From an uncultured Acidobacteriota bacterium (GTDB lineage: Bacteria > Acidobacteriota > Vicinamibacteria > Fen-336): a stretch of 64,000 nucleotides of DNA. Below are positions 25,645 through 59,957 of this stretch, piece after piece; position 1 is the stretch's first letter; each line of letters opens with the position of its first letter. The position numbers were made by a program, and so were the translations under genes. The notes under the pieces were generated by a model. The model had not been told where the DNA came from, made no database searches, and saw only the letters and a program-made list of their open reading frames with translations. The stretch is from NCBI GenBank assembly GCA_963720545.1, contig OY970399.1:3347022-3411021 (forward strand), read 5' to 3'.

Positions 25645-26664
25645 CCGCGCGGGCTCCGGGCCGATCGCCAGCATGCGCTCGACCGCCTGGCGCGCGCGGC
25701 CGGCAACTTCCGGCGCCACCGTCACCTCGTAGCGCAGGTGCAGCAGCGAGTCGTAGATCTTCGGCAGCGTGATGCGCTTCATGTGCGGGCAGAAGTTGCA
25801 GGGCCGGATGAACTCGGTGCCCGGCGCCATCACCGCGACGTTGTCGCTCATCGAGCACTCGGTGATCATCACCACGCGCGCCGGCCTGCGTTGCGTGACG
25901 TGGCGGATCATCCCCGACGTGGAGCCGACGAAGTCGGCTTCGGCGAGCACGTCGGGCGGGCATTCGGGATGCGCGATCACCTCGACGCCGGGGTTGAGGC
26001 GTCGGTACTCGCGGATCTCGGCGCCGGTGAAGCGCTCGTGCACCTCGCAGTGGCCCGTCCACAGGACGATCTCGACCTTGGTCTTGCTCGCGACGTACTT
26101 GCCGAGGTATTCGTCGGGCAGGAAGATCACCCGCGGTACGTTCAGCGATTCCACCACGCGCACGGCGTTCGACGACGTGCAGCAGATGTCCGACTCGGCC
26201 TTCACCTCGGCCGAGGTGTTGACGTAGGTGACGACCGGCACGCCGGGGTAGCGCTGCTTCAGCAGGCGCACGTCTTCGGCGGTGATCGACTCGGCGAGCG
26301 AACAGCCGGCCCGCGTGTCGGGGATGAGCACGGTCTTGCCGGGGTTCAGCACCTTGGCGGTCTCGGCCATGAACTGCACGCCGGCCATCACGATGACGTC
26401 GGCCTTGGTGTTCGCCGCTTCGCGCGCGAGGCCCAGCGAGTCGCCCTGGAAGTCGGCGACGCCGTGGAAGATCTCAGGCGTCTGGTACGTATGGGCGAGC
26501 ACCACGGCGTTGCGTTCGCGCTTCAGGGTGTTGATGGCGTCGATGTACGGCGCGAACACCGGCCACTCGATTTCCGGGACCACGCCCTTGACGCGATCCC
26601 AGGCTGCCGCGGTGCGCGCGGCCACCTCGGGCGTGAATGCCAGGCTGCTCATGTCTTCGCTCAC
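25642..26664 (-). CDS. nadA: Quinolinate synthase
   Basis: 340 aa; NadA motifs (VLAHTYQ, conserved Cys residues, PECPP). Confidence 0.9.
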
Positions 26665-26669
26665 CTCAT

Positions 26670-26699
26670 ATGCTCAGAAAGAGCATTAACGATGTGCTC
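26670..26699 (-). promoter_or_regulatory. Candidate operator: overlapping AT-rich inverted repeats between the nadA -10 element and the nadA start
   Basis: ATGCTC-agaaa-GAGCAT (26670-26686) and GAGCA-N9-TGCTC (26681-26699) in an otherwise GC-rich region; candidate NrtR site because nrtR lies immediately upstream. Confidence 0.4.
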
Positions 26700-26735: not shown

Positions 26736-27644
26736 TCAGGCGCGGTTGGGGCGGCCGACTCCGGGCGCCAGGCGCTCGCGCCAGACGTCGCGGCGGAAGC
26801 GGAACAGCTCGGCGGGCCGGCCGGCGGTGCGCGCCGCGAACTTGCCGGTGCCTTCCACGAGCCCGGCGGTGGCCATCAGCCTGCGGAAGTTCTGCTTGTG
26901 CAGCCGATATCCGGCGAGCGCTTCCACCAGCCGCTGCAGCTGCAGCAGCGTGAAGGCGCGCGGCAGCAGCTCGAACACCACCGGCCGGTACCGGATCTTG
27001 CCGCGCAGCCGTCCCAGCGCCGTGGCCAGGATGCGGCGGTGGTCGAGGTCGAGCGGCTCGCCGGCCAGCGAGCGCGTGGCTTCGGAAAGGAGCCGCGCTT
27101 CGTAGAGCAACTCGTAGCGCTCGAGAACGCGGTCGGCGTCCCACGAAGCGCCGCGCAGGCCGAAGGCGACGTCGATACGCTCGCGGCGCAGCGCGCGCGC
27201 CTTCTGTTCCTTCTCCTGACGGGTCCACGCATCGAGCGCCGCGGTCAGCGGCTTGAGCGCGGCGGTGCGGCGTTCGCGTCCGTCCTCCCAGGGAAGGAAG
27301 TCGTAGATGTTGCGCCAATGCGCTTCGCCGCCACCGCCGAGCGCGCCCTCGCGGACCAGCGCGAGGTAGGCGACCGAGATCAGGCGCTGGCCATCGGCCG
27401 ACGGCCCGAGACGGTCGCGGTCGCCGAACGTGTAAAGCTGCTCGACGTAGCCGAGCTCGAGCCCGGACTGCTGGCGCACCCAGGAGCGCAGGCCGAGGTC
27501 GAGCGTGCGGTCGCCGGCCGGATCGAGCGGACCGAAGGGCAAGGCGCCCGGATGGCCCCTGCGGCTCACGATGAGGACACGCGGCTCGTCATCGGTGACG
27601 GCGACGACCACGGCGCTCAGCCCGATGACGACGCTCTCAGCCAA
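26736..27644 (-). CDS. nrtR: Nudix-related transcriptional regulator of NAD metabolism (NrtR-like): degenerate Nudix domain plus C-terminal winged helix
   Basis: Nudix-like N-domain whose box reads RSWVRQQSG (no catalytic Glu pair); C-terminal region with LLPRAFTLLQLQRLVEALAG; located directly upstream of nadABC. Confidence 0.7.
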   Translation of the reverse strand: MAESVVIGLSAVVVAVTDDEPRVLIVSRRGHPGALPFGPLDPAGDRTLDLGLRSWVRQQSGLELGYVEQLYTFGDRDRLGPSADGQRLISVAYLALVREGALGGGGEAHWRNIYDFLPWEDGRERRTAALKPLTAALDAWTRQEKEQKARALRRERIDVAFGLRGASWDADRVLERYELLYEARLLSEATRSLAGEPLDLDHRRILATALGRLRGKIRYRPVVFELLPRAFTLLQLQRLVEALAGYRLHKQNFRRLMATAGLVEGTGKFAARTAGRPAELFRFRRDVWRERLAPGVGRPNRA

Positions 27645-27646
27645 GC

Positions 27647-28399
27647 TCAGTCCTTCTTCGCCCCTTGCTTCGCCACCGCCTGGGCGGCGCGCTTCACGGC
27701 TTCAGGATCGCCGAGGTAGAAGTGCCGCACCGGCTTCAGGCCGGCATCGAGCTCGTAGACGAGCGGCACGCCGGTTGGAATGTTGAGCTCGGTGATCTCC
27801 TGCTCGGAGATGCCGTCGAGATACATCACCAGCGCGCGGAGGCTGTTGCCGTGCGCGGCGACCAGCACCCGCTGGCCGGCCCGCAGCGCCGGCGCAATGG
27901 TCTCGTGCCAATAGGGAAGGAAGCGCGCGACGGTGTCCTTCAACGACTCTGTGAGCGGCGCGCTGATGCCGGCGCCGAGATTCTGGTAGCGCGCGTCGCG
28001 GCCTTCATAGCGCTCGTCGTCCCGAGCGAGCGGCGGCGGCGGGTCGCCGTAGCTGCGGCGCCAGACCTTCACCTGCGCCTCGCCGAACTTCGCCGCGGTC
28101 TCGGCCTTGTTCAGTCCCTGCAAAGCGCCGTAGTGGCGCTCGTTGAGGCGCCAGGTTGGAAACACCGGCAGCCACATGAGGTCCATCTCGTCCAGGGCGA
28201 TCCAGAGCGTGCGGATGGCGCGCTTGAGGAGCGACGTGTACGCGAGGTCGAAGGTGTAGCCGCCCGCGCGCAGCAGCCGGCCGGCTTCGCGCGCCTCCTC
28301 GCGCCCCTTCGGCGAGAGGTCCACGTCGGTCCAGCCCGTGAAGCGGTTCTCGAGGTTCCATTGGCTTTCGCCGTGACGCAGCAGCACGAGTGTGGGCAT
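27647..28399 (-). CDS. gpmA: 2,3-bisphosphoglycerate-dependent phosphoglycerate mutase
   Basis: 250 aa; [12 protein letters not shown] catalytic His motif and GpmA-like overall sequence. Confidence 0.9.
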
Positions 28400-30555: not shown

Positions 30556-31110
30556 CTACAACAGCGCGGGCTTGAGGTCGGCGTGCGCGGACGAGATCAC
30601 GACGCGCGCGATCAGCATGCCTTCCTTGCGCACCGACGCGGCGCCGGCGGCGACGGCCGCCTCGACCGCGGCGACGTCGCCGGTGAGCACCACCAGGCCC
30701 TTGCCGCCCGGCTGGTTGCGTGCCTCGATGAGGGTGACGGCGGCCGCCTTCACCGCGGCGTCGCCGGCGAAGATGGCGGAGGCCACTTCCTTCGTTTCGA
30801 TGATGCCGACGGCGCCGATCTGCGGCACCGCGACGCGGCCCTTGATGGCCGCGGCGAGCTGCGGGTCGGCATTCTGGATGATGAAGTCGTCGAGCAGCGT
30901 TGCGGCTGCCGTCTCGCGGCCGGCGCTGAGCGAAGCCTCGACGTCGGCGACATTGCCGCCGATCATGATGAGGTACTTGCCGCGCGGCACGATGGTGGTG
31001 AGCAGCAGGTCCACCGATGCCCGCTTCAGCATCGCGTCCACGGCTTCGATGCCCTTGGCGATCGACGACGTCTCGATGAAGCCGATGGCCGGCCCGCTCT
31101 TCTCTTTCAT
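30556..31110 (-). CDS. Tandem BMC-domain shell protein (BMC-T, PduT-like)
   Basis: 184 aa from ATG 31110; two BMC domains (AIGFIETSSIAKGIEAVDAMLKRASVDLL and AVGIIETKEVASAIFAGDAAVKAAAVTLI); Val where PduT carries the Fe-S cysteine. Confidence 0.7.
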   Translation of the reverse strand: MKEKSGPAIGFIETSSIAKGIEAVDAMLKRASVDLLLTTIVPRGKYLIMIGGNVADVEASLSAGRETAAATLLDDFIIQNADPQLAAAIKGRVAVPQIGAVGIIETKEVASAIFAGDAAVKAAAVTLIEARNQPGGKGLVVLTGDVAAVEAAVAAGAASVRKEGMLIARVVISSAHADLKPALL

Positions 31111-47627: not shown

Positions 47628-49868
47628 ATGCGGGCGATCGGCAAGAGCGTGTTGCGCACGGAGGGCCCGGACAAGCTGTGCGGCGCCACGCGCTACACCG
47701 ACGACATCGAACCCGAGGGTTGCCTGCACGGCGTCACGCTGCGCGCGACCATCCCCTACGGGCGGATCCTGGCGATCGAGAAGGACCCGGCCTTCCCCTG
47801 GCGCGAGTTCGTGGTGGCGACCGCGAAGGACCTGCCGGGGCCCAACCGCGTGCAGCTCATCGAGGACGACCAGCCGCTCCTCTGCGAGGAGTGGGTGCGC
47901 CATCCGTACGAACCGATCCTGCTGGTGGCGCACGCCAACCGCTCGCGGGCGTACGAAGCCCTCCGGCACATCCGTGTCACCTACGAGCCGCACGAGCCGG
48001 TGCTCTCGATCGACGACGCGCTGGCGGTGAAGCAGAAGCTGCGCGGCGAGGACAACGTCTTCAAGTCGTTCCACATCGTGCAGGGCGACATCGACGCGGG
48101 CTTCGCGGCGGCCGACCTCGTAGTTTCAGGCGAGTACACGGTGCCGCACCAGGAACAGGCCTACATCGAGAACAACGTGATGACCGCGTGGTTCGAGGCG
48201 GACGGCACGCTGGTGGCGCACGGCTCGATGCAGTGCCCGTACTACGTGCACAAGGCGCTGCGCGGGTTGTTCAAGCTGAAGGGCGAGAAGGTGCGGGTCA
48301 TCCAGGCGCCGACCGGCGGCGGCTTCGGCGGCAAGGAGGAGTACCCGAACATGATCGCTGGTCACGCGGCGCTGCTGGCGCGCAAGGCGAAGCGGCCGGT
48401 GAAGATCGCCTACGACCGCCACGAAGACATGGCGGCCACCACCAAGCGCCATCCGGCGCGCATCCGCCACCGCACCGGCGTGAAGCGCGACGGCACACTG
48501 GTGGCGCAGGACATCGAGGTGGTCATGGACGGCGGCGCCTACATCACGCTGTCGCCCGTGGTGTTGTCGCGCGGCACGCTGCACGCGACCGGGCCGTATG
48601 CCTGCCCCAACGTGCGCATCCGCTCGAGTGTGGTCGCGACCAACACCGTGCCGAACGGCGCCTTCCGTGGTTTCGGGGCGCCGCAGACGCTGTTCGCCGC
48701 CGAGCTGCACATGGCGCGCATCGCCGCCGAGCTGCGCCTCGACCCCGTGGCGCTGCGCGAGAAGAACGCGGTGCGCCGCGGCTCGGTGATGGCGACCGGC
48801 CAGGTGCTGCGCGAGAGCGTCGGCGCGCGCCAGGCGCTGCAGCGCGTGGTCGCCGACTCCGGCTATCGCCGCAAACGGGTCGAGCACGCCAGGTGGAACG
48901 CGCAGCCGGGCACTGCGCACTGGAAGGGCGTGGGCCTGGCGCTCGTCCACCACGGCTCGGGCTTCACCGGCAGCGGCGAGGAGCACCTCGCGAGCCGCGC
49001 CGCGGTGACGCTGACCCGCACCGGCCGCATTCGCGTGCTCGCCGGCTCCACAGAATTCGGCCAGGGGACCAACACGATGTTCAGCCAGATCGTCGCCGAG
49101 ACGCTCGGCGTCGCGACAGCTCTCGTCGACGTCGCGACTCCCGACACCCGCTTCGTCCCCGACAGCGGGCCGACGGTGGCGAGCCGCACCTGCATGGTCG
49201 TCGGCCGCCTGGTGCGCGACGCGTGCCGCGACCTGCACGCGGCGGTCAGCGGCCGCAAGCCGTTTCCGCGCTCGGCGCGCGACCTGCGCGCGGCCGCGAA
49301 GCGCGTCTGCGGCACGCGCGACGAGGTGCGCTTCGAGCGCCAATACGAGAAGCCGGCCGCCATCACCTGGGACGACACCACCTACCGCGGCGATGCCTAC
49401 GAAGCGTACGGCTACGCCGCGGCGGTGGTGGACCTCGAGGTGGACAAGCTGACGTTCGAGGTGACGCTGCGCCGCGTCACGCTCGCCGCCGACATCGGCC
49501 GGGTGGTGAACCCGGTGCTCGCCGCGGGCCAGGTGATCGGCGGCGCGGCGCAGGGCCTCGGCTATGCGCTCCTCGAGAACCCAGTGTACAAGGACGGGGC
49601 GATGCAGAACGCGCAGCTCACGAACTACATCATCCCGACCGCGAAGGACCTGCCGCAGATCGACGTCGCTTTCACGCCCGCGCTCTACTCGCTCGGGCCG
49701 TATGGCGCCAAGGGTGTGGGCGAGTTGCCGATGGACATTCCCGGGCCGGCGGTGGCCGACGCGGTGCACGACGCCACCGGCCTCTGGATCACCTCGCTGC
49801 CGGTGCTGCCGGAGAAGATCGCTGCGGCGCATGGCGCCCGCCGGCGCGGCACCGCGGTGCCGGCGTGA
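47628..49868 (+). CDS. Xanthine dehydrogenase family, molybdopterin-binding large subunit
   Basis: 746 aa from ATG 47628; XDH/aldehyde oxidase large-subunit blocks (GGGFGGKE, FRGFGAPQ, GQGTNTMFSQIVAE). Confidence 0.85.
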   Translation: MRAIGKSVLRTEGPDKLCGATRYTDDIEPEGCLHGVTLRATIPYGRILAIEKDPAFPWREFVVATAKDLPGPNRVQLIEDDQPLLCEEWVRHPYEPILLVAHANRSRAYEALRHIRVTYEPHEPVLSIDDALAVKQKLRGEDNVFKSFHIVQGDIDAGFAAADLVVSGEYTVPHQEQAYIENNVMTAWFEADGTLVAHGSMQCPYYVHKALRGLFKLKGEKVRVIQAPTGGGFGGKEEYPNMIAGHAALLARKAKRPVKIAYDRHEDMAATTKRHPARIRHRTGVKRDGTLVAQDIEVVMDGGAYITLSPVVLSRGTLHATGPYACPNVRIRSSVVATNTVPNGAFRGFGAPQTLFAAELHMARIAAELRLDPVALREKNAVRRGSVMATGQVLRESVGARQALQRVVADSGYRRKRVEHARWNAQPGTAHWKGVGLALVHHGSGFTGSGEEHLASRAAVTLTRTGRIRVLAGSTEFGQGTNTMFSQIVAETLGVATALVDVATPDTRFVPDSGPTVASRTCMVVGRLVRDACRDLHAAVSGRKPFPRSARDLRAAAKRVCGTRDEVRFERQYEKPAAITWDDTTYRGDAYEAYGYAAAVVDLEVDKLTFEVTLRRVTLAADIGRVVNPVLAAGQVIGGAAQGLGYALLENPVYKDGAMQNAQLTNYIIPTAKDLPQIDVAFTPALYSLGPYGAKGVGELPMDIPGPAVADAVHDATGLWITSLPVLPEKIAAAHGARRRGTAVPA

Positions 49869-50581
49869 TCAACCTCTCGGTCAATGGCCGCCGTCGCGCC
49901 TTCTCGGGGCCGCCGTGGAAGCGCCTCCTCGACGTGCTGCGCGAAGACTTCGCGCTGACGGGCACCAAGGAGGGCTGCGGCGAAGGCGAGTGCGGTGCCT
50001 GCACCGTGCTCATAGACGGCGCCCCGGTGAACAGCTGCCTGATCCCCGCCTGCCAGGTCGCCGGCCAGCGCGTCGAGACGATCGAAAGCCTTGGCCGCCC
50101 CGCGGCGCTGAGCGTCTTGCAAGAACGCTTCCTCGCGATGGGCGGCGCGCAGTGCGGCATCTGCACCCCGGGCATGCTGATGGCCGCCTGGGCCCACGTC
50201 AAAGCCGGCGGCTCCGCTTCCCCCGACGCTGTTCGCGAGCAACTGGCCGGCAACCTCTGCCGCTGCACCGGCTATCAGGCGATTGTGGATGCTGTTATTG
50301 AGACGATTCGTCTTGAGACGATTCGAAAATCGCTAAAGCGAATCGTCTCAATTCCGGGCCAGAGGTCCGTTGCCGCTCCCAGGAAGAAGTCCGTCCGTCC
50401 TCCCAGGAAGAAATCCGTTCGTTCTCCCAAGAAGAGAGCGGCGCCGCTTTCCAGGAAAAGGACCGTCGCGTCCGCCACAAAGAAATCAGCAGCGCCTGAC
50501 AAACGGAAATCTCGTCCTCGGAGGAAGTCCGTTGTCAGGTCAGCTATGTCTCCGAAGACGAGAAGCGTGAAGACGAGATAA
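49865..50581 (+). CDS. Xanthine dehydrogenase family [2Fe-2S] small subunit with Lys/Arg/Ser-rich C-terminal repeat tail
   Basis: GTG start overlapping the large-subunit stop; two 2Fe-2S motifs (CGEGECGACTV and CGICTPG...CRCTGY); ~75 extra C-terminal residues PRKKSVRPPRKKSVRSPKKRAAP.... Confidence 0.8.
   Translation: MINLSVNGRRRAFSGPPWKRLLDVLREDFALTGTKEGCGEGECGACTVLIDGAPVNSCLIPACQVAGQRVETIESLGRPAALSVLQERFLAMGGAQCGICTPGMLMAAWAHVKAGGSASPDAVREQLAGNLCRCTGYQAIVDAVIETIRLETIRKSLKRIVSIPGQRSVAAPRKKSVRPPRKKSVRSPKKRAAPLSRKRTVASATKKSAAPDKRKSRPRRKSVVRSAMSPKTRSVKTR
50298..50475 (+). repeat. Lower-GC repeat block inside the small-subunit 3' region: TTGAGACGATTCG direct and inverted copies (50298-50351) and ~24-bp tandem repeats (50377-50475)
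   Basis: Perfect 13-bp inverted repeat 50313-50325 / 50339-50351, an extra direct copy at 50298-50310, then degenerate CTCCCAGGAAGAAGTCCGTCCGTC-type tandem units. Confidence 0.8.
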
Positions 50582-50582
50582 C

Positions 50583-51449
50583 GTGCGCGGTAATCCTCTT
50601 CGCATCACCGTGTCGCGGCCAGCCACAGCGGAGCAGGCGATTGCCGCGTACGCCGCGCGGCCTGACTCGCTGCCGTTTGCCGGCGGCACCGACCTGATGG
50701 TCGCCTGGAACGCCGGCGACTGGCACGACCGCGAAGTCCTCGACCTGTCGGCGCTCGACGAGTGGCGCAGCATCGCTGCGGCGGCGGGGGAATTGCGCAT
50801 CGGCGCCCTGGCCACGCACACGAGCCTGCGCCGCCACGAAGCGGTCGCCCGCCACGCGCCGCTGCTGGCGTCGGCCTGCGCCACCATCGGCGGCATCCAG
50901 ATCCAGAACCGCGGCACGCTCGGCGGCAACATCGCCAATGCCTCGCCGGCGGGCGACACGTTTCCGCCGCTCGCTATCTACGACGCCGTGGTCCACATCG
51001 CCGCAGCGCGCGGCGCGCGGCAGGTACCGTTCGCCGCGGTGTTCAGCGGCGTGAAGAAGACCGTGCTCGAACCGGGCGAGCTGATCGACGCGATCACGAT
51101 CCCGATCCCGGCGGCGCCGCCCGACCGGGTGATGTTCCGCAAGGTCGGCACGCGCGCCGCGCAGGCGATCTCCAAGGTGGTCGCGGCCGGCGCCTTGTGG
51201 TTCACGGCCGACGGCACCGTGGCCGACGTCCGCTTTGCCCTCGGCAGCGTGGCGCCGACGGTGAAGCGCGCCGCCGCGGTCGAGAAATTCCTCAAGAACC
51301 GCTGGCTCACCAGGAACGTGGTGCGCGAGGCGTGCCTCAAGCTCGAAGCCGACATCAAGCCCATCGACGACATCAGGTCCACCGCGGAGTATCGAATAAA
51401 CGTTGCCAGGGCGCTGCTGTCGTCCTTCCTCGGCCAGGACCCCCGTTGA
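50583..51449 (+). CDS. Xanthine dehydrogenase family FAD-binding subunit (CoxM/XdhB-like)
   Basis: 288 aa; FAD-binding molybdopterin-dehydrogenase pattern (AGGTDL, GTLGGNIANASP). Confidence 0.8.
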   Translation: MRGNPLRITVSRPATAEQAIAAYAARPDSLPFAGGTDLMVAWNAGDWHDREVLDLSALDEWRSIAAAAGELRIGALATHTSLRRHEAVARHAPLLASACATIGGIQIQNRGTLGGNIANASPAGDTFPPLAIYDAVVHIAAARGARQVPFAAVFSGVKKTVLEPGELIDAITIPIPAAPPDRVMFRKVGTRAAQAISKVVAAGALWFTADGTVADVRFALGSVAPTVKRAAAVEKFLKNRWLTRNVVREACLKLEADIKPIDDIRSTAEYRINVARALLSSFLGQDPR

Positions 51450-52771
51450 AAACGAAACGGCCGGAGAAACAAGCGCGGGCGTCGTTCACCCCGGTGCTGG
51501 CCACGCTGCGCCGCGCCAACAGCGTGCTGGCGAAGCGCTATCCGGGCGATCCCGACGGCCGCCAGCCGGTGCACACCGTCTACGGCGGCGCGCACCTCTT
51601 CAAGGCCGATACCGCACCGCGCCTGGGCGCGCTCGCCCTGCGCGCGCTCGACCAGCACGCGCCCGACCCGATCTCGTTCGCCGGCGCGCTGCAGTTGCAG
51701 GTGCCCGACGGCCTCGACCCGTTCCGTCACGCCACCGAGATCTACGAGCGCGTCACGGCCAAGCTGCGACGTGAGCCGGTGGAAGACTTCCGCATCGACT
51801 TCGAGGACGGCTACGGCAACCGCCCCGACGCCGAGGAGGACGGGCACGCCGTGTCCGCGGCCCGCGCCGTGGCGGAGGGTGCCCGGGCGGGCACGCTGCC
51901 GCCGTTCATCGGCATCCGCATCAAGACGCTCTCGAACGAACTCGCCGCGCGCAGCCTGCGCACTCTCGAGGTCTTCGTCGCCACGCTGGTAGAGGCGACC
52001 GGCGGCCGGCTGCCGCCGGGCTTCGTCGTCACCCTGCCGAAGATCATGGTGCCCGGACAGGTGCGGGCGCTGGCGCGGGCGCTTGCCGCGCTCGAGAAGG
52101 CGCACGGCCTCGCCGACCACTCGCTGCGCTTCGAGCTGATGGTGGAGACCACGCCCTCGATCTTCGACCACGAGGGACGCCTGGCGCTGCCGGCCCTGAT
52201 CGCGCTCGGCGACTCGCGCATCACCGCGGCGCACTTCGGCACTTACGACTACACCGCGTCGTGCAATATCACCGCCGCACACCAGTCGATGACGCATCCG
52301 GCCTGCGACTTCGCCAAGCAGGTGATGCAGGTGGCGCTCGCCGGCACCGGCATCACGCTCTCGGACGGCGCCACCAACGTGATGCCGGTCGGCGAGCGCG
52401 AGACCGTGCACCACGCCTGGCACCTGCACTTCCAGCAGGCGCGCCATTCGCTGATGCAGGGCTTCTACCAGGGGTGGGACCTGCACCCGGCACAGCTCGC
52501 GAGCCGCTATGCCGCGGTCTACTCGTTCTTCCTCGAGGGCCTCGGGCCGGCCTCCGAACGGCTGCGCAACTTCGTGGACAAGGCGGCGCAGGCAACGCTC
52601 GTCGGCGACATCTTCGACGACGCCGCCACCGGCCAGGGCCTGCTCAACTACTTTCTGCGCGCCCTCAACTGCGGCGCCATCGACGAGGCCCAGGCGCTCG
52701 CCACCGGCCTCACCCGCGACGAGCTGCGCACCCGCTCGTTCGTGCGGATCATGAAGGCGCGGCGCGCGTAG
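51446..52771 (+). CDS. Malate synthase / CitE-like (HpcH-HpaI) superfamily protein, putative
   Basis: TTG start overlapping the upstream stop; DFEDGYG acidic motif and TIM-barrel-like pattern; family assignment tentative. Confidence 0.45.
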   Translation: MKTKRPEKQARASFTPVLATLRRANSVLAKRYPGDPDGRQPVHTVYGGAHLFKADTAPRLGALALRALDQHAPDPISFAGALQLQVPDGLDPFRHATEIYERVTAKLRREPVEDFRIDFEDGYGNRPDAEEDGHAVSAARAVAEGARAGTLPPFIGIRIKTLSNELAARSLRTLEVFVATLVEATGGRLPPGFVVTLPKIMVPGQVRALARALAALEKAHGLADHSLRFELMVETTPSIFDHEGRLALPALIALGDSRITAAHFGTYDYTASCNITAAHQSMTHPACDFAKQVMQVALAGTGITLSDGATNVMPVGERETVHHAWHLHFQQARHSLMQGFYQGWDLHPAQLASRYAAVYSFFLEGLGPASERLRNFVDKAAQATLVGDIFDDAATGQGLLNYFLRALNCGAIDEAQALATGLTRDELRTRSFVRIMKARRA

Positions 52772-53572
52772 TCAGCGCCTGCGGATCCACCAGGCCGCGC
52801 CCCAGCCGACCAGGACCATCGCACCGAGCACCGCGAGCGGGTGGCCGCTGCCGTAGGCGATTGTCGGGAAGTGGCTGCCGACCATGGTGAAGAGCACCGG
52901 CAGCACGATAAAGGTGTTGTGCCTGGAGCGGCTCCTGGCGGTGGCCGCGAGCAGCGGATCGGGAGCCTGGCCGGCGCGGATGGCGCGCACCATCTGCTTC
53001 TGGCCGGGGATGATGCGGTCGGTGACGTTCGTCGCCATGATGGTGCCGAGCAGCGCGCCCACGTGGATGTAGGCGGCGCGCGGGCTCATCACCTGCAGCA
53101 GCCACCACGCGGCCGCCAGCAACAGGAGGTACGAGAGGACGATCGCGGCTGTCTCGAAGCGGCCCATGGCGCGCGCCCAGAGCTGGTCGTACACCATCCG
53201 GCCGACGAACACGGTGAGGATCCCCTGGAACACGGCGCGCCCGACGCTCGCTTCGGGGTCGGCCACCATCAGCCCGCCGGTCCAGTACACCATCAGCAGC
53301 AGCGCGACGCCCGAGGACCAGGTAAAAATCGCCTCCCACTGGAACCAGTGCAGGGTCTTCGGCAGCGGCGCCAGTGTCGCACGCTTCTCGACCACGTAGA
53401 AGCCGCCGCTGTGCACCATGAACACCTGGTTGCCGGGGTTTTCCTCGGCGTCGGCGAACGCGCGCTCGAGGAACGTGAAGAGCCAGGTCTGGCCGATCCA
53501 GAGAATCGCCGCGAACACGTGCGACCAGCGCAGCGCGAGGTGCAGCCATTCGCTCCAGTCGCTCCACTGCAT
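52772..53572 (-). CDS. Integral membrane protein resembling the membrane domain of PuuD-type urate hydroxylase (tentative)
   Basis: 266 aa, ~6 TM helices with conserved His/Trp-rich segments, no CxxCH heme motif; assignment leans on its position in the purine catabolism cluster. Confidence 0.5.
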   Translation of the reverse strand: MQWSDWSEWLHLALRWSHVFAAILWIGQTWLFTFLERAFADAEENPGNQVFMVHSGGFYVVEKRATLAPLPKTLHWFQWEAIFTWSSGVALLLMVYWTGGLMVADPEASVGRAVFQGILTVFVGRMVYDQLWARAMGRFETAAIVLSYLLLLAAAWWLLQVMSPRAAYIHVGALLGTIMATNVTDRIIPGQKQMVRAIRAGQAPDPLLAATARSRSRHNTFIVLPVLFTMVGSHFPTIAYGSGHPLAVLGAMVLVGWGAAWWIRRR

Positions 53573-53576
53573 GGGC

Positions 53577-53921
53577 TTACGTCCCCTTGTAGGTGCTGTA
53601 GCCGAACGGGCTCAATAGCAGGGGCACGTGGCTGTGCGCTGTGGCGTCGTCCACGTCGAATACCACGATCGCGTACGGGAAGAACGAGCGGCTGCCTTTC
53701 TCCGACTGGTACACGCCCACCTCGAAGGTGAGCCGGTAGCGGCCGGTGGTGAAGTCGGAGCCGCCCCAAAGGCCGCGCGCCCGGCCGTCGGCATCGGTGT
53801 GGCCGCGGCCGACGACCACCCAGTCGCCGCCGACTTCCTTCTCGAGGAGCACCGGCACGCCGGCCGCCGGCCGGCCGCGCGCCGTGTCGAGCACATGGGT
53901 CGTGATGCCACCACCGTTCAT
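53577..53921 (-). CDS. 5-hydroxyisourate hydrolase (transthyretin-like)
   Basis: 114 aa; transthyretin-fold motifs (ITTHVLDTARGRPAAGV); C-terminal YKGT in place of the usual YRGS. Confidence 0.75.
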   Translation of the reverse strand: MNGGGITTHVLDTARGRPAAGVPVLLEKEVGGDWVVVGRGHTDADGRARGLWGGSDFTTGRYRLTFEVGVYQSEKGSRSFFPYAIVVFDVDDATAHSHVPLLLSPFGYSTYKGT

Positions 53922-54431
53922 CTAGGGAACCTCCGCGAGCCACTTGTCGAGCCGCAATGCAGTGATCTTCTCCTGTTCGCTCGCCGCTTTCCTGAGCTCG
54001 GCCGCGGGCGAGGCGCGCAGCCGCTCGCGCAGGTCCTCGAGCATGTCCGCGGCGCTCCGGCCGGTGGCACAGACGATGAAGATGTGGCCGAACTGCCGCT
54101 CGTACTCCAGGTTGCCGGCCATCAGCGCCACGAGCGTCTTTTCGTCAGCGCCAGCCGCGGCGTGCTGCTCGCCCTGCGACCAGGTGGCGGCGAAGCGCTC
54201 GCGCATCGCCTCGAGGTCGCCGATGCGCGGATGTTGCGCGAACGCCTCGAGCCAGTCCTCGCGGTCGAGCGCGCGCCATGCCGTGCGTGCCGCCTCGTGG
54301 AGCGCTGCCGCGCTTGCGAACGGCCGGCCCAGGAGCATGGCGTCAACCCAGCGGCTCGAGCCGCAGCAGCGGCTGAAGCCGGCCGCGGCATCGGCCTCAG
54401 GAAGGCCGTTAACGGCGGCGAGTCCGCCCAT
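53922..54431 (-). CDS. OHCU decarboxylase (2-oxo-4-hydroxy-4-carboxy-5-ureidoimidazoline decarboxylase)
   Basis: 169 aa; motifs HPRIG and FGHIFIVCATG. Confidence 0.8.
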   Translation of the reverse strand: MGGLAAVNGLPEADAAAGFSRCCGSSRWVDAMLLGRPFASAAALHEAARTAWRALDREDWLEAFAQHPRIGDLEAMRERFAATWSQGEQHAAAGADEKTLVALMAGNLEYERQFGHIFIVCATGRSAADMLEDLRERLRASPAAELRKAASEQEKITALRLDKWLAEVP

Positions 54432-55401
54432 GGATCCGCAACCTGCTGATGCCGCCGTCCGGGAAGATGCGCAGGCGCACGTGGGTGAATGGCCCCGCGG
54501 CGCGCAGCATCGCCGCGCCGAAATAGTGCCGCGTGTTCGCCTTCAGCGGGCTGCGCTGCAGCACGTCCTGCCACGGCCCGCCGTCCACATCGGCGGCCAC
54601 CGCGTCGGCTTCGCCCAGGTGCGCCGCCTGCAGCGACGCGCTCTCCGGGAAGTTGCCCTTGAAGTGGTTGGTGTCGATCTCGATGCGCTCCAGCACGCCG
54701 GCGTTGCCGAGTTTGACGATCACCCAGTCATAGCCCGGCCCGCGGCGCCGCCGCGTCTCCCACCCCTCGCCCATGTTGGGCGCGCGGCCCGGCAGGATCA
54801 GGTTCGACTTGAGGCCGAAGTGTTCGTCGCTCGCGAGCAGCACGCGGCCGCCGTGTTCCAGCGCCGCGAGGTCCACGAGCTTGCCCGCGAGCGCCGGCCA
54901 GTCGACGCTGACCTCGCCGTGGACCCGCAGGCGCGCGACGCCGCCGTCCGGAAAGATGTTGAGCCGCACGTGCGTCACCGGCGGGCGCAGCGGCACTTCC
55001 ACGGGGTTCGACGCGCCGGGCGACAGCAGCCACGGATCGACGACCTGCACCCAGGCGGCGTGCGCCAGCTTGTCCTTGGTGGCCGTGCCCTTCAGGTCGC
55101 AGACGTCGATCGAGGCGCGCTCCGGCTGGTTGCCGATGAAGTAGTTGGTGTCCACGTCGATGCCGCGCAGCACGCCGCGCAGCCCCAGCTCGACGATGCA
55201 CCAGTCGTGGCCCGGGGTGCGGCGCCGGCGCGTCTCCCAGCCGTCCATCCACTTGCCGCGCTGGGTGAACTTGTCGGCGATGAAGACGCCGCGGCCGGGG
55301 CGCAGGAGGTTGTGGCGCGAGGCGAAGAACTCGTCGTTCGCCAGCAGGGCGCGCCCGCCGACGCGTGCGGCGGCGAGGTCCGGATAGTCAGCGAAGTCCA
55401 T
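54409..55401 (-). CDS. Allantoicase
   Basis: 330 aa from ATG 55401; two repeated allantoicase domains (GWETRRRR..., IFPDGG...RLR twice). Confidence 0.85.
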   Translation of the reverse strand: MDFADYPDLAAARVGGRALLANDEFFASRHNLLRPGRGVFIADKFTQRGKWMDGWETRRRRTPGHDWCIVELGLRGVLRGIDVDTNYFIGNQPERASIDVCDLKGTATKDKLAHAAWVQVVDPWLLSPGASNPVEVPLRPPVTHVRLNIFPDGGVARLRVHGEVSVDWPALAGKLVDLAALEHGGRVLLASDEHFGLKSNLILPGRAPNMGEGWETRRRRGPGYDWVIVKLGNAGVLERIEIDTNHFKGNFPESASLQAAHLGEADAVAADVDGGPWQDVLQRSPLKANTRHYFGAAMLRAAGPFTHVRLRIFPDGGISRLRIHGRTRRR

Positions 55402-56749
55402 GTCGTCGTCGCTCCAGCAGCTCACCGCGGGGCGCGACATCTGCGAGGACGCCCTCGCCGAACACGCGCGTGCCCCGCACGAACGTCGCCACCACGCGGC
55501 CGCGCAAGGTGCGTCCAAGGTAGGGGGTCAGCGCGTGGCGGTGGCGAATCATATCCTGCGCCACGACCACGCTTCCATCGGGGTCGAAGGCCACCACGTC
55601 GGCGTCGAGGCCTGCCGCCAGCCGGCCCTTGCGGTGGTCGAGCCCGGCGAGCCGCGCCGGAGCCGCGGCCATCAGGCGGCTGAGGTCGGGAAATCCAAGG
55701 CCGCGGGCCTCGGCCCCGGTCCAGGTCGCGCTGAGCGCGAACTGCAGCGAGGCGATGCCGCCCCACGCCTGCATGAAGTCCCCGGCCTCGCGTGCCTTCA
55801 GCGCCGGCACGCACGGCGAATGGTCCGAGACGACCATGTCGATGGTGCCGTCGGCGAGCGCCGCCCACAGCCGTTCGCGGTTCGCGCGCTCGCGGATCGG
55901 TGGCGCGCACTTGAACTCGGTGGCGCCGTCTGCGATGCCTTCCGCGTCGAAGGTGAGGTAGTGCGGACAGGTCTCGACGCTGATCGGCACCGAGCGCGCA
56001 CGCGCCGCCCGGAGCGGAGCGAGCGCTTCGTCCGACGAGAGGTGCACCACGTGCACCGGCGCGCGCAATTCCTCGGCGAGACCGATGAGCCTGGCGATCG
56101 CCGCGTTTTCCCAGGCCTTGGGGCGGCTCGCGAGAAAGGTCGAGTAGGCCGCGGGGCCCGAGGTTGCGGCATGCGGCGCACCCAGGTCTTCCTCGGCGTG
56201 GGCGAGCAGGGGAATGCCGCGCGGGCCCAGCACAGCGAGCGCCTGCCGCAGGTCGGCTTCGGCGCTGCACGGGAAGTCGTCGATCCCCGAGTGCACGAGG
56301 AACGCCTTGAAGCCGCACGCGCCGGCATCGATCATCGCCGCGAGTTCAGAGGCGTTGCCGGGAACGATGCCGCCCCAGAAGGCCGTGTCCACATGGCAGC
56401 GGCCGGCCGCCGCGGCGCGCTTCTCGGCGAGCGCGGCGAGGGTGGTGGTCACCGGGATGCTGTTGAGCGGCATGTCCACGATGGTGGTGATGCCGCCGGC
56501 GGCAGCCGCCGCGGTCGCGGTGGCGAAGCCTTCCCATTCGCTGCGGCCCGGCTCGTTGACGTGCACGTGCGAGTCCACGATCCCCGGCATCAGCACCAGC
56601 GGATCGAAGTCCTCGACCGCGTAGCCCGCGGGGACCTCGTGAGGCGCCGTCACGGCGTCGATACGGCCGTCGCGGATCAGGATGGCGCCGGGGTTGCAGC
56701 CGGCGCCCGTCAGGACGCGGCCGCTGCGCAGGGCCGTGCCCGCCACCAT
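55388..56749 (-). CDS. Allantoinase (cyclic amidohydrolase family)
   Basis: 454 aa from ATG 56749; metal-binding HVHVNEPGR, carboxylated-Lys region FKAF, SDHSP motif. Confidence 0.8.
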   Translation of the reverse strand: MVAGTALRSGRVLTGAGCNPGAILIRDGRIDAVTAPHEVPAGYAVEDFDPLVLMPGIVDSHVHVNEPGRSEWEGFATATAAAAAGGITTIVDMPLNSIPVTTTLAALAEKRAAAAGRCHVDTAFWGGIVPGNASELAAMIDAGACGFKAFLVHSGIDDFPCSAEADLRQALAVLGPRGIPLLAHAEEDLGAPHAATSGPAAYSTFLASRPKAWENAAIARLIGLAEELRAPVHVVHLSSDEALAPLRAARARSVPISVETCPHYLTFDAEGIADGATEFKCAPPIRERANRERLWAALADGTIDMVVSDHSPCVPALKAREAGDFMQAWGGIASLQFALSATWTGAEARGLGFPDLSRLMAAAPARLAGLDHRKGRLAAGLDADVVAFDPDGSVVVAQDMIRHRHALTPYLGRTLRGRVVATFVRGTRVFGEGVLADVAPRGELLERRRHGLR

Positions 56750-57204
56750 CAGTACGTCTGCTTGCCGGGCAGCGCCTGCCAGTCGCTGAGCAGCTTGCGG
56801 CAGGCGCCGCGGGCGACGCCCTTCACGATCTTCACCTTGCTGCGTCCGAGCCGCTTCAGCGTGGTGTTGGAAATCGTCAGCTCGTTGAAGCCGAGGCGCT
56901 TGACGTCGGGCACCGAGGTGCCGAAGTAGATCCTGTCCACCTGGGCCCAATGGATCGCGGCGAAGCACATCGGGCAGGGCTCGGTGGTCGAGTACAGCTC
57001 GCAGCCGGCGAGCAGGTGCGTGCCCAACGCCTTCGTGGCAATGCCGATGGCTTCGATCTCGGCGTGCCTCGTGGGGTTGCCGGTGCGCAGCACGCGGTTG
57101 TGCGCCACCGCGACGATGCGGTTGCCCTTGACGATGACAGCGCCGAACGGGCCGCCGTCGCCGCGCTTGATGCCGGCCAGGGCGTTGTCGACGGCGAGCT
57201 GCAT
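56749..57204 (-). CDS. CMP/dCMP-type zinc deaminase (guanine deaminase-like)
   Basis: 151 aa from ATG 57204; zinc motifs HAEIEAI and PCPMC; the N-terminal 53 aa of the track ORF are rejected. Confidence 0.7.
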   Translation of the reverse strand: MQLAVDNALAGIKRGDGGPFGAVIVKGNRIVAVAHNRVLRTGNPTRHAEIEAIGIATKALGTHLLAGCELYSTTEPCPMCFAAIHWAQVDRIYFGTSVPDVKRLGFNELTISNTTLKRLGRSKVKIVKGVARGACRKLLSDWQALPGKQTY

Positions 57205-57257: not shown

Positions 57258-57728
57258 ATGGCCCCTCCCGCGATTCGCGACGCGACCGCCGCCGACCAGG
57301 AGTTCGTGATCGCGACCGCGGCGCGCCTCGCCGAATTCGGCCCGCCCGAATCGCGCCCGGCAACCGAACTGGTGGCGGGCGAAGTGCGGACGCTGCGCCA
57401 GTGGTTCAAGGCGCCACCTGCGGGCACGCGCGTCATCGTCGCGGAGTCGGCCCAGGGCGAGCGCCTCGGCTTCGCCTATCTCGAGCCCGTGGTCGAATAC
57501 TTCCTCCGCGAGGAACACGGCCACCTTGGCATGATCGCGACCGCCGCCGGCGCCGAAGGCCGGGGCGTCGGCTCGGCGCTGCTCCGGGCCGCCGAAGACT
57601 GGTGCCGCGCGCAGGGCTATCGCCGGCTCACCCTCAACGTGTTCGCGAACAACAGCGCCGCGCGCGCCGTCTACGACCGCAAGGGCTACGTGCCGGAGAC
57701 GATCCACTACGTCAAGCTGCTCCGCTAG
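57258..57728 (+). CDS. GNAT family N-acetyltransferase
   Basis: 156 aa; acetyl-CoA binding motif region (RGVGSALLRAAEDWCRAQG). Confidence 0.7.
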   Translation: MAPPAIRDATAADQEFVIATAARLAEFGPPESRPATELVAGEVRTLRQWFKAPPAGTRVIVAESAQGERLGFAYLEPVVEYFLREEHGHLGMIATAAGAEGRGVGSALLRAAEDWCRAQGYRRLTLNVFANNSAARAVYDRKGYVPETIHYVKLLR

Positions 57729-57732
57729 TCGT

Positions 57733-57821
57733 CATCGGCGGATGGGCCGCCTCGCCGACCATCCGCCGATTTCCGTTCGTCCATTCTTTCGTTCCCAGGC
57801 GCTTGCGTCCGGGTCCGTTCC
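57733..57821 (+). repeat. Repeat element copy 5: variant hairpin (57734-57770) plus module CCCAGGCGCTTGCGTCCGGGTCCGTTCC (57794-57821)
   Basis: Starts 6 nt after the GNAT gene stop; same stem variant as copy 4. Confidence 0.85.
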
Positions 57822-57928
57822 GGTGGCCGTTTCCTGACGGTCACTTGCGGCGCGCAGGACCACTCGCCGGCCGCTATCGAGCTACGGCGCTCAGACACAG
57901 TAGCAGAGATCCGGACGGTACGGCCGAT

Positions 57929-57999
57929 GACGCAAGCGCCTGGGGAACGGACTAACGGAAATCGACGGATTGGACGCGAACGATCGCCAATCCGTCGAT
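57929..57999 (-). repeat. Repeat element copy 6 (reverse orientation): hairpin 57961-57999 plus module core GACGCAAGCGCCTGGGG (57929-57945)
   Basis: Main-type 13-bp arms; inverted relative to copy 5 about 190 bp away. Confidence 0.85.
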
Positions 58000-58016
58000 G
58001 ACTGGCGGTGTAGAAC

Positions 58017-58388
58017 ATGGACATGAACCTCGCGCAACACGTCCTGCTGAAGAGCTTCGAGAGCCCCGACGAGGTACGCCGCTTCGAAAGAGGCCGGTTC
58101 GAGACGGTGCGGATCGGCGCGCTCACGATCGGCCGCGCCACCTACGAGCCCGGCTGGAAATGGTCCACGCACGTCGGCGCCCTCACCGGCCAGACTGCCT
58201 GCACCGTCGAGCACGTCGGCCTGGTGGTGAGCGGCGCCGCGGTCGCGGCGTTCGCCGATGGCTCGGTCGCGGAGCTGCGGCCCGGCGTGGTCTTCCACAT
58301 CCCCGCGCATCCCCACGACAGCTGGGTGATCGGCGACGCACCCTACGTGTCCCTGCACTTCGTGGGCGCCGACCACTACGCCAAGTAG
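58017..58388 (+). CDS. Cupin domain protein
   Basis: 123 aa, small beta-barrel pattern with conserved His (HIPAHPHDSWVIG). Confidence 0.6.
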   Translation: MDMNLAQHVLLKSFESPDEVRRFERGRFETVRIGALTIGRATYEPGWKWSTHVGALTGQTACTVEHVGLVVSGAAVAAFADGSVAELRPGVVFHIPAHPHDSWVIGDAPYVSLHFVGADHYAK

Positions 58389-58436
58389 ACTTCGCCGCGA
58401 ATCGCGAATGAGGCGACGACGCGAAAGCGAGGCAGC

Positions 58437-59957
58437 GTGATGCGAAGTGTGGCGTGGTGCGCAGGATTCCTGCTGGTGGCGGGGGCCGCTTCGGCAGCCG
58501 ACGGCGACATCCGCAGGAAGGTGGACGGCTACGTCGCCGCGCACCAGGGCGAGGTCGTCGCCGAGCTGGTGCAGGCGCTTTCGATTCCCGACGTCGCTTC
58601 AGACACCGCCAACATCCGCAGGAAGGCGGAGCTTTTGGCCGGGATGTTCCGCAAGCGCGGCTTCGCGGCCTCGCTCCTCGAGACGAGCGGCAACCCGCTG
58701 GTCTACGCCGAACTGAAGAATCCGCGCGCCGAGCGCACGCTGCTCCTCTACGCGCATTACGACGGCCAGCCGTTCGACCAGAAGTTGTGGAAGCAGGAGA
58801 GTCCCTTCAAGCCGATCCTGCGCGACGGCCGCATGGAAGACGGTGCCAAGACCCTCGCCGACTTTCGCGACTACCGCACGTTCGCGCCCGACTGGCGCGT
58901 CTACGCCCGCTCGGCGTCCGACGACACCTCGCCGATCGTCGCGGTGCTGGCAGCGGTGGACGCGCTGCAGGCGACCGGACTGGCGCCGGCGTCGAACCTG
59001 AAGGTGATCCTCGACGGCGAGGAGGAGGCCGGCTCGGCGAGCCTGCCGGCGGCGATCGCGAAGCACCAGGACCTGCTGAAGGCAGACCTGCTGCTGATCC
59101 TCGACGGCCCGGTGCACCCGTCGGAAAAGCCGACGCTCGTCTATGGCGCGCGCGGCATCCTCACCGTCGAGCTCACCGTCTACGGCCCGAAGTTCGCGCT
59201 GCACAGCGGCCACTACGGCAACTGGGTGCCGAACCCGGCGCTGCGCCTCGCGCAGCTGCTCGCGTCGATGAAGGATGCGGACGGCCGCACCACGGTCGCC
59301 GGCTACTACGACGGCATTTCGTTCACCGCCGAAGATCGCGCCGCGATGGCCGCGGTGCCGGACGACGCCGCGGCGCTGCGCGCGAAGTTCGGAATCGGCT
59401 CGGTGGACAAGGTGGGCGAGAGCCTGCAGGAGGCGCTGCAGTATCCGTCGCTCAACGTGCGCGGCCTGCGCAGCGCCTATGTCGGAGAAGAGGCGCGCAC
59501 GGTGGTTCCCGACCAGGCGATTGCCGCGATCGACATGCGGCTGGTGAAGGAAACCACAGCCGACGCCATCTTCGCGAAGTTCACCGCGCACGTCCGGGCG
59601 CAGGGATGGCATGTCGTCAGCGCCGACCCCGACGACGCGGAACGCGCGCGCCATCCGCGCATCGTCAGGATCGTGCGTGTCGAAGGCGGCAGCGAGGCGT
59701 ATCGCACCAGCCTCGACGACCCGCAGGCGCAGCGGCTGTTCCAGGCCTTGAGCCGCGAGATGGGCGAGCCGCCGGTGCGCCTGCGCACCTCGGGCGGCAC
59801 CGTGCCGATCGAACCGTTCGTGCGCATCCTCGGCGTGCCTGCGGTCTCGGTGCCGATCGTGAACTACGACAACAACCAGCACAGCGAGAACGAGAACCTG
59901 CGCCTCGGCCACTTCTTCCGCGGCATCGCGATCGTCGCGATCGCGCTGGCGATCTGA
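58437..59957 (+). CDS. M20 family metallopeptidase (dipeptidase-like), secreted
   Basis: Signal peptide; M20 metal-binding blocks (LLYAHYDGQP, ASDDTSP, LDGEEEAGS). Confidence 0.75.
   Translation: MMRSVAWCAGFLLVAGAASAADGDIRRKVDGYVAAHQGEVVAELVQALSIPDVASDTANIRRKAELLAGMFRKRGFAASLLETSGNPLVYAELKNPRAERTLLLYAHYDGQPFDQKLWKQESPFKPILRDGRMEDGAKTLADFRDYRTFAPDWRVYARSASDDTSPIVAVLAAVDALQATGLAPASNLKVILDGEEEAGSASLPAAIAKHQDLLKADLLLILDGPVHPSEKPTLVYGARGILTVELTVYGPKFALHSGHYGNWVPNPALRLAQLLASMKDADGRTTVAGYYDGISFTAEDRAAMAAVPDDAAALRAKFGIGSVDKVGESLQEALQYPSLNVRGLRSAYVGEEARTVVPDQAIAAIDMRLVKETTADAIFAKFTAHVRAQGWHVVSADPDDAERARHPRIVRIVRVEGGSEAYRTSLDDPQAQRLFQALSREMGEPPVRLRTSGGTVPIEPFVRILGVPAVSVPIVNYDNNQHSENENLRLGHFFRGIAIVAIALAI

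Follow-up and report, generated by a model that had tools for sequence, protein, structure and literature searches.

A seven-helix, cytochrome-less PuuD-family protein and a candidate ureidoglycolate lyase in a purine catabolic cluster of an uncultured Acidobacteriota bacterium

The membrane protein PuuD in its cytochrome-c-bearing form is the urate oxidase of Agrobacterium, as proven genetically (PMC4562309). The cytochrome c domain was found to be invariant in all full-length PuuD proteins and was considered probably essential, on the basis of this invariance and of the ccmC phenotype, by which heme c matters in Sinorhizobium; the only cytochrome-less members described were DUF989 proteins with four transmembrane (TM) helices, located in unrelated gene contexts (PMC4562309). 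A transport role was argued against since cytosolic Uox fully complements the mutant, and an electron-transfer model was put forward, with superoxide scavenging as the alternative and a pre-fusion ancestor as a postulate (PMC4562309). Here we describe a 64-kb window of a metagenomic contig (ENA ERZ25039530; OY970399.1), which is the part of the genome visible to this analysis and which contains a cluster (47628-57204) that, as such, is an ordinary purine/ureide catabolic cluster. Its unusual members are a 266-amino-acid (aa) membrane protein related to PuuD, hereafter short PuuD, and a protein of the family DUF6986. To our knowledge, none of the other three known urate oxidases is as poorly understood as PuuD, which has never been purified. 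We propose, with a probability of about 0.72, that the cluster is self-contained and degrades guanine, hypoxanthine and xanthine to glyoxylate and two molecules of urea with one gene per step.

A preliminary description of this stretch had compared the membrane protein with PuuD-type urate hydroxylases lacking a heme c motif and had named PF06181 as the family to search. The accession is correct, and the comparison holds: the protein matches PF06181 (Urate_ox_N, formerly DUF989; COG3748) with 237.8 bits (gathering score 26.9; E 2.3e-70) over profile positions 4-261 of 295, leaving the last ~34 positions of the hidden Markov model (HMM) unmatched, whereas no NCBIfam model matches it. The sequence contains zero cysteines and hence no CxxCH motif. 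It is 34-35% identical to three annotated PuuD proteins of 395-419 aa (Pseudoalteromonas, Aminobacter, and Leisingera), with which it aligns colinearly, helix by helix, until the alignment ends after helix VII; the long proteins continue past its end with the rest of helix VII, helix VIII, a linker, and the cytochrome c with its CxxCH. The AlphaFold2 (AF2) model, based on 42 homologues (predicted local distance difference test score, pLDDT, 81.9; predicted template modeling score, pTM, 0.81), shows seven long helices, the first loop forming a beta hairpin. Thus, the eight helices and the cytochrome c with CxxCH that characterize PuuD are replaced in the window protein by seven helices and no cytochrome c.

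The membrane core itself is well preserved. The residues R15, H18, W25, H54, G56, Y59, W76, E80, Y128, M179, N182, P189, Q191, H218, N219, M230, and H234 are invariant in the short and the cytochrome-c forms, and the window protein keeps what is conserved in helices I, II, V, and VI as well as in loops I-II and V-VI, which were assigned to the cytosol in 2015 (PMC4562309). Judging from the published topology and the helix positions as read, most of the invariant His, Met, Glu, Tyr, Arg, and Asn residues appear to lie towards the cytoplasmic side, with M230 and H234 probably at the outward end of helix 6. Basic residues, as read from the sequence, are distributed in agreement with the published N-out topology (PMC4562309); with seven helices, this orientation places the C-terminus in the cytoplasm. 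Two natural fusions bear on the same point. A 452-aa protein present on three contigs (P0078; L092, 10001-11359) consists of short PuuD with a C-terminal 2-oxo-4-hydroxy-4-carboxy-5-ureidoimidazoline (OHCU) decarboxylase, and the cytochrome-c form P0352 has an N-terminal OHCU decarboxylase and an extra inserted transmembrane helix. Since OHCU decarboxylase is a cytosolic enzyme, both fusions agree with an N-out core; furthermore, the fusion of short PuuD ties it to the purine pathway and its C-terminus to the cytoplasm. Taken together, the alignments suggest that the window protein represents the seven-helix catalytic core of PuuD, for which a role as urate oxidase/hydroxylase is proposed.

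The short form is a large conserved clade and not peculiar to this contig. The best 120 database homologues are 250-282 aa long and contain PF06181 only, with the exception of the 452-aa fusion, and some of the short homologues carry the NCBI label 'urate hydroxylase PuuD'. The family name has therefore already been given by automatic annotation; what is undescribed is a widespread architecture of a barely characterized enzyme. Peptide patterns from the short-form alignment, applied to one genome per GTDB species, located the short form in at least 595 species genomes, from which 80 loci were retained. These are mostly from Acidobacteriota (Pyrinomonadaceae, Thermoanaerobaculia, Vicinamibacteria, and Terriglobia), together with Bacteroidota/Ignavibacteria, Myxococcota, and Dormibacterota, and nearly all are metagenome-assembled genomes. 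The closest relatives show 97%, 76%, and 72% identity, and Acidobacteriota genomes follow at 56%. CxxCH is present in 0 of 81 short-form open reading frames (ORFs). The wide occurrence of a seven-helix, cysteine-free form contradicts the published invariance of the cytochrome c. In some Thermoanaerobaculia loci, an apparent fusion of xanthine dehydrogenase (XDH) to PuuD was rejected as an ORF-calling artefact due to an Arg-rich alternative frame.

The cluster consists of two tightly packed convergent operons, on the plus strand from 47628 to 52771 and on the minus strand from 57204 to 52772. The G+C content of the window is 70%, so that raw ORF lists are crowded with spurious frames; gene calls were therefore fixed by codon-position G+C, translations, and Pfam and NCBIfam scans, as follows.

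47628-49868, plus strand: XDH-family molybdopterin (large) subunit, 746 aa; Pfam Ald_Xan_dh_C, MoCoBD_1, MoCoBD_2
49865-50581, plus strand: XDH-family 2Fe-2S (small) subunit, 238 aa; Pfam Fer2, Fer2_2
50583-51449, plus strand: XDH-family FAD subunit, 288 aa; Pfam FAD_binding_5, CO_deh_flav_C
51446-52771, plus strand: DUF6986 protein, 441 aa from TTG; PF22484, E 1e-185
52772-53572, minus strand: short PuuD membrane protein, 266 aa; PF06181, E 2.3e-70
53577-53921, minus strand: 5-hydroxyisourate (HIU) hydrolase, UraH, 114 aa; Pfam Transthyretin, E 8e-34; TIGR02962, 121.7 bits (cut-off 87.45)
53922-54431, minus strand: OHCU decarboxylase, UraD, 169 aa; PF09349, E 8e-45; TIGR03180, 166.4 bits (cut-off 139.4)
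54409-55401, minus strand: allantoicase, ~330 aa from the ATG of 'MDFADYPDL', a start chosen from the translation; PF03561, E 3e-98, two repeats; TIGR02961, 401 bits (cut-off 278)
55388-56752, minus strand: allantoinase AllB, 454 aa; Pfam Amidohydro_1; TIGR03178, 540 bits (cut-off 358)
56749-57204, minus strand: cytidine-deaminase (CDA)-fold zinc deaminase, 151 aa, the first gene of the minus-strand operon; PF00383, E 9e-23

Every gene named in the preliminary description was recovered, at the same position or a few bases away, and the overlapping stops and starts noted there are real. The GTG start of the 2Fe-2S subunit lies within the stop of the large subunit (GTGA, 49865-49868), and the TTG start of DUF6986 within that of the FAD subunit (TTGA, 51446-51449); on the minus strand, neighboring genes overlap or are separated by gaps of at most 4 nucleotides. 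The two operons meet without a spacer, as the DUF6986 gene ends at 52771 and the membrane protein gene at 52772. No Rfam family, tRNA, promoter-like site, or terminator was found above background within the cluster. The four ureide enzymes (AllB, allantoicase, UraD, and UraH) all exceed their NCBIfam equivalog cut-offs.

Read from family, architecture, conservation, and gene context, the proposed activities would follow one another in seven steps. The small CDA-fold deaminase would convert guanine to xanthine, which the three-subunit XDH-family enzyme would oxidize to urate; the 266-aa membrane protein would then convert urate to 5-hydroxyisourate, and UraH and UraD would carry this to (S)-allantoin. 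AllB would open the ring to give allantoate, from which allantoicase would release urea and (S)-ureidoglycolate. Finally, DUF6986 may cleave ureidoglycolate to glyoxylate and a second urea, using the Mg2+/alpha-hydroxy-acid chemistry of the malyl-CoA lyase fold. The electrons withdrawn from urate would most likely pass to the quinone pool of the membrane or to a periplasmic carrier encoded by a separate gene.

The company kept by short PuuD in other genomes is consistent with this scheme. In tblastn searches with the window proteins against 83 short-PuuD loci, UraH was present in 67 and UraD in 62, which places the membrane protein where the urate-oxidizing step is expected, as had been suggested beforehand; allantoicase occurs in 55 of the 83, DUF6986 in 54, AllB in 50, and the XDH subunits in 35-39. 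Cytochrome-c PuuD (PMC4562309) likewise has uraH, uraD, allantoin genes, and XDH as partners and is found in place of the soluble uricase, and it shares PF06181, the alignable helices I-VII, and the invariant residues with the short form. However, the short form lacks helix 8, the linker, the cytochrome c, and any cysteine; its C-terminus is predicted to be cytoplasmic instead of periplasmic, and it occurs in the phyla listed above, whereas cytochrome-c PuuD belongs to Proteobacteria. The 4-TM DUF989 proteins resemble the window protein in matching PF06181 without a cytochrome c, but they retain only helices I, II, V, and VI in unrelated contexts, while the window protein has seven helices, including III, IV, and VII, and is encoded in a purine operon.

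The strongest computational argument for short PuuD at the urate step comes from its complementarity with the soluble uricase. The absence of a soluble uricase reported in the preliminary description is confirmed for the window, in which a Pfam scan of the long coding-like ORFs and of every gap ORF of at least 110 aa reported no PF01014 (uricase) or PF01494 (HpxO/HpyO-type) domain, and it extends to all 83 short-PuuD loci. The comparison set comprises 80 loci retrieved from metagenomes by an actinobacterial-rooted DUF6986 profile, and purine/ureide genes accompany DUF6986 in many of them. Soluble uricase (PF01014) is present in 22 of these 80 loci, 11 of them with uraH in the same locus, and short PuuD in none. 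The same pathway with the same neighbors thus contains one oxidase or the other; the first identification of PuuD followed the same logic (PMC4562309). Uox/PucL (PF01014), HpxO, and HpyO occupy the pathway step proposed here for short PuuD, and in actinobacterial loci the soluble uricase even takes the same operon position, beside uraH/uraD; however, these enzymes have unrelated soluble folds and use O2 directly, in H2O2-forming or NADH-dependent reactions.

The absence of helix 8 and the cytochrome c means that the electrons from urate must leave the short form by another route, and the wider family provides clues to it. A short-form HMM searched over 1.84 billion representatives retrieved 2142 family members at E ≤1e-10. 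Among the best 150 of these, 30 are 250-310 aa long and contain CxxCH in no case, 68 are 370-460 aa long with CxxCH in 52, and 26 have at least 500 aa. Most of the last group combine the full eight-helix domain with a periplasmic region carrying the invariant motifs N.D...HNV and C-x2-H-P-W-M; the profile of this region matches the blue type-1 copper protein 5fc9 (E 3.8e-8) and amicyanin (~3e-7), and the alignment spans the conserved His and the C-x2-H-P-W motif. These proteins of ~510-590 aa form a PuuD-cupredoxin class, with an 8-TM Urate_ox_N domain, an amicyanin-like type-1 copper domain, and a CarboxypepD_reg-like beta-sandwich (P0252, P0254, P0256, P0261, P0262, P0265, P0271, P0273, P0275, P0276, P0279, P0281, P0284, P0289, and P0300). 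They share the membrane core of the window protein and indicate that cytochrome c is not obligatory, but differ from it in keeping helix 8 and in adding the periplasmic copper domain and the beta-sandwich. The class is absent from the family description of 2015 (PMC4562309). Four further members (P0245-P0248; 549-733 aa) display tandem double Urate_ox_N matches, with a C-terminal CxxCH in three of the four.

Among periplasmic one-electron carriers, cytochrome c and cupredoxins are the classic example of proteins that can stand in for each other. The occurrence of cytochrome c, a cupredoxin, or nothing at the same place in the family therefore suggests that the module missing from short PuuD is an electron carrier, which supports the electron-transfer model of 2015 over the superoxide scavenger; furthermore, since this module is variable or absent, the seven-helix core is implied to be the catalytic unit. 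As the minimal catalytic unit, the short form would offer a simpler target for expression and structural work. The short and cupredoxin forms together support a respiration-linked oxidation of urate without H2O2. In therapeutic use, uricase has the known drawback of producing peroxide, so that urate oxidation free of H2O2 is of some practical interest.

As the acceptor of the short form, the quinone pool is our preferred candidate, at odds a little short of even, whereas direct reduction of O2 is improbable and any other acceptor still less likely. A separately encoded carrier is possible but doubtful; it would be a periplasmic one-electron protein, cytochrome c or cupredoxin, that docks on the outer face of the core in the manner of the fused domains in other members and passes electrons to a terminal oxidase instead of to quinone. 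This proposal concerns the electron route only and leaves the assignment as urate oxidase untouched. The fused cytochromes and copper domains of the longer members argue for it, as do the ccmC phenotype in Sinorhizobium (PMC4562309) and the position of M230 and H234, invariant in short and long forms, at the probable outer end of helix 6. However, a tblastn search for a split-off TM8/cytochrome c gene gave no match in the window or in 86 loci, and unbiased clustering of the neighbors within 10 kb in the 83 short-PuuD loci yielded genes such as DUF975, an M49 peptidase, and a GDSL lipase, each in a minority of loci, but neither a cytochrome or cupredoxin nor AllA or a uricase as a conserved neighbor. 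The tethering helix 8 has, moreover, been lost along with the carrier.

The second unusual member, DUF6986, belongs to a family with more than 8000 database matches, for which JGI gives the label 'citrate lyase beta subunit'; nothing was found in the literature on DUF6986 or on a CitE-type enzyme in ureidoglycolate metabolism. Homologues are 64-80% identical to the window protein, and the mean column identity over 32 sequences is 63%; across phyla, identity amounts to ~65%. The earlier designation of this gene as malate-synthase/CitE-like is borne out by profile and structure comparisons. A PDB profile search gave a weak match to malyl-CoA lyase across the E..ET, G..D, and HP.Q motifs, and HMMER alignments with the malyl-CoA lyases 5ugr and 4l9y pair ELMvET with EVLIET, fGtyDy with FGVADY, and GWDLHPAQL with KWAIHPSQI, the paired residues being invariant in the 32 homologues. 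The Glu and Asp of the E..ET and G..D motifs serve as ligands of Mg2+ in this enzyme family. With the AF2 model (pLDDT 76.8), Foldseek retrieved, at a probability of 1.00 and E-values of 3.6e-6 to 1e-4, the CitE-like lyase 3qqw, CLYBL (5vxc), and the malate synthases 3cuz, 5tao, and 1d8c (A/G/H). For the window protein, only PF22484 is reported, PF03328 and PF01274 remaining under their Pfam cut-offs, while some homologues match one of the two weakly. DUF6986 thus resembles malyl-CoA lyase, CitE, CLYBL, and malate synthase in its predicted fold, its metal-site and HP.Q motifs, and a probable alpha-hydroxy/oxo-acid ligand of the glyoxylate type. However, it differs from them by ~100 extra N-terminal residues and an invariant C-terminal GD.FDDAATGQGLLNYF segment, and its context points to ureidoglycolate instead of an acyl-CoA substrate.

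The gene context helps to narrow the possible function. DUF6986 is translationally coupled to XDH in the window; in Nocardia farcinica the order is XDH, DUF6986, allantoicase, and a PuuE-type deacetylase, and in Tsukamurella it is XDH, guaD, DUF6986, and ureidoglycine aminohydrolase. Of the 80 metagenomic DUF6986 loci, 24 encode ureidoglycine aminohydrolase, which lies directly 3' of DUF6986 in 22 of them, and 26 encode a genuine malate synthase A (PF01274 with MS_N and MS_C), which lies directly 5' in 25. Near actinobacterial DUF6986 there are often also genes for an IclR regulator and malic enzyme, as well as for glyoxylate carboligase, tartronate-semialdehyde reductase, and hydroxypyruvate isomerase. 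The operon order malate synthase A, DUF6986, ureidoglycine aminohydrolase is seen in L098 (6371-9213), in L096-L111, and in other loci, often with a soluble uricase nearby. In Gordonia polyisoprenivorans p174 (L090, 8531-12731), a gene for a PaaI-family thioesterase extends into the start of DUF6986, a urease operon follows directly downstream, and malate synthase G is a few genes away; this is the sole context that hints at a CoA-thioester substrate.

The canonical ureidoglycolate lyase AllA (PF04115) gave no tblastn match in the window or in 163 loci (83 short-PuuD and 80 DUF6986 loci), although the proteobacterial PuuD cluster L086 does contain it. The conversion of ureidoglycolate to glyoxylate and urea is the only reaction without a gene in these clusters, and users of glyoxylate are encoded next door, which favors DUF6986 as the ureidoglycolate lyase; we give this assignment an even chance. 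DUF6986 would catalyze the reaction of AllA and, like AllA, would act on the product of allantoicase or ureidoglycine aminohydrolase, but the two have no relationship in sequence or fold, so that DUF6986 is proposed as a functional analogue. In chemical terms, ureidoglycolate (-OOC-CH(OH)-NH-CO-NH2) can be regarded as an aza-analogue of the malyl group of malyl-CoA (-OOC-CH(OH)-CH2-CO-SCoA), on which a retro-reaction of the malyl-CoA lyase type would release urea in place of an enolate. The speculation offered in the preliminary description, that the CitE-like protein handles the glyoxylate formed, is probably one step off, with malate synthase 5' and ureidoglycine aminohydrolase 3' in Actinobacteria. 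In these clusters, few genes are as conserved as DUF6986, which is a candidate for the so far missing ureidoglycolate lyase in many soil bacteria, where the short PuuD and DUF6986 variants are common.

A second proposal for DUF6986, which we regard as possible but rather unlikely, is a glyoxylate-condensing enzyme of the malate synthase or malyl-CoA lyase type, with ureidoglycolate cleaved by allantoicase, spontaneously, or by an enzyme encoded elsewhere. The fold and metal-site motifs would suit such an enzyme, as would the PF01274 or PF03328 matches of some homologues, and the overlapping thioesterase of Gordonia would complete a malyl-CoA route; malate synthase genes are also known members of allantoin clusters, such as aceB1 of Streptomyces coelicolor. 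However, this activity would be redundant beside the malate synthase A directly 5' of DUF6986 in the actinobacterial loci and the malate synthase G near it in Gordonia, and several loci already contain glyoxylate carboligase, tartronate-semialdehyde reductase, and hydroxypyruvate isomerase. In addition, the most constant neighbors of DUF6986 are the two enzymes that produce ureidoglycolate, and AllA is missing from all 163 loci.

Several points weigh against the self-contained pathway as a whole. The 2015 study holds the cytochrome c to be probably essential, so that a cytochrome-less core might need a partner encoded elsewhere, and since the search for a uricase covered 64 kb, a canonical enzyme may be encoded in another part of the genome. 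All XDH subunits score under their NCBIfam equivalog cut-offs. The characterized relatives of DUF6986 all act on CoA thioesters or 2-oxo acids, the thioesterase overlap in Gordonia points in the same direction, and allantoicase is reported to cleave ureidoglycolate in some organisms (EC 3.5.3.4 entry). The possibility that the membrane protein is not a urate oxidase at all but a DUF989-type accessory for transport, membrane tethering of the pathway, or scavenging, with Uox, HpxO, or HpyO encoded beyond the 64 kb, would accord with the loss of a cytochrome considered essential, but is very unlikely in view of the absence of uricase from all 83 short-PuuD loci set against its presence in 22 of the 80 actinobacterial loci with comparable gene content, the catalytic-core residues shared with the genetically validated form, the natural fusion to OHCU decarboxylase, and the full complementation by cytosolic Uox that speaks against transport (PMC4562309).

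A bolder combination of the two proposals is tentative and, on present evidence, somewhat doubtful: that the seven-helix core is a complete membrane urate:acceptor oxidoreductase and that DUF6986 is a new, non-homologous family of ureidoglycolate lyases. The core would then pass electrons from urate into the respiratory chain, at the quinone pool, through a cofactor held by the invariant His/Met residues; the short form would be the pre-fusion ancestor postulated in 2015, and the cytochrome-c and cupredoxin forms would be later additions. As a lyase, DUF6986 would close the last unassigned ureide step in Acidobacteriota, Actinomycetota, and other phyla.

For the enzymes that would feed urate into the pathway, the assignments are less specific. 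The molybdopterin subunit finds its best NCBIfam match in PucD (485 bits; equivalog cut-off 784), the 2Fe-2S subunit in XdhC (153 bits; cut-off 217), with XdhC/PucE-type matches spanning residues 2-147, and the FAD subunit in XdhB (172 bits; cut-off 310), among XdhB/XdhA-type matches. The motifs GGGFGGKE, R..H (LSRGTLH), FRGFG (AFRGFG), and GE (GVGELP) of the large subunit align with three annotated XdhB proteins; we take them to be equivalent to the active-site residues Glu802, Arg880, Phe914, and Glu1261 of the bovine enzyme. The 2Fe-2S subunit ends in a basic tail of ~85 aa (50320-50581), which contains PRKKSV-like repeats and a large share of Lys, Arg, Ser, and Pro, and the subunit has 217 aa in the related locus L091 and the usual 159 aa in L092. 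The CDA-fold deaminase probably belongs to the small GuaD-type guanine deaminases, with its substrate taken from context; its NCBIfam matches are of the TadA type only and are all below threshold. Its gene was detected in 6 of the 83 short-PuuD loci and is the first gene of the related cluster in L091.

Beyond the cluster, a GNAT acetyltransferase, a weak cupin-like ORF, and an M20 peptidase are encoded on the plus strand (57258-59957), divergently from the purine operon; they were rejected as conserved cluster members since they occur in 0 of the 83 loci, and they are probably unrelated to the pathway. A lone gene for a bacterial microcompartment (BMC) shell domain (~30556-30840, minus strand; Pfam BMC, E 5.5e-40) adjoins genes for a squalene/phytoene synthase and an amine-oxidase-type desaturase, and no further shell or microcompartment genes were noticed in the window. 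The region 23250-26673, including ~24100-25700, contains nadA, a nadB-like gene (FAD_binding_2), and nadC (QRPTase), a housekeeping context of NAD biosynthesis, and a gene for an NrtR-type regulator lies close to these nad genes (26736-27701).

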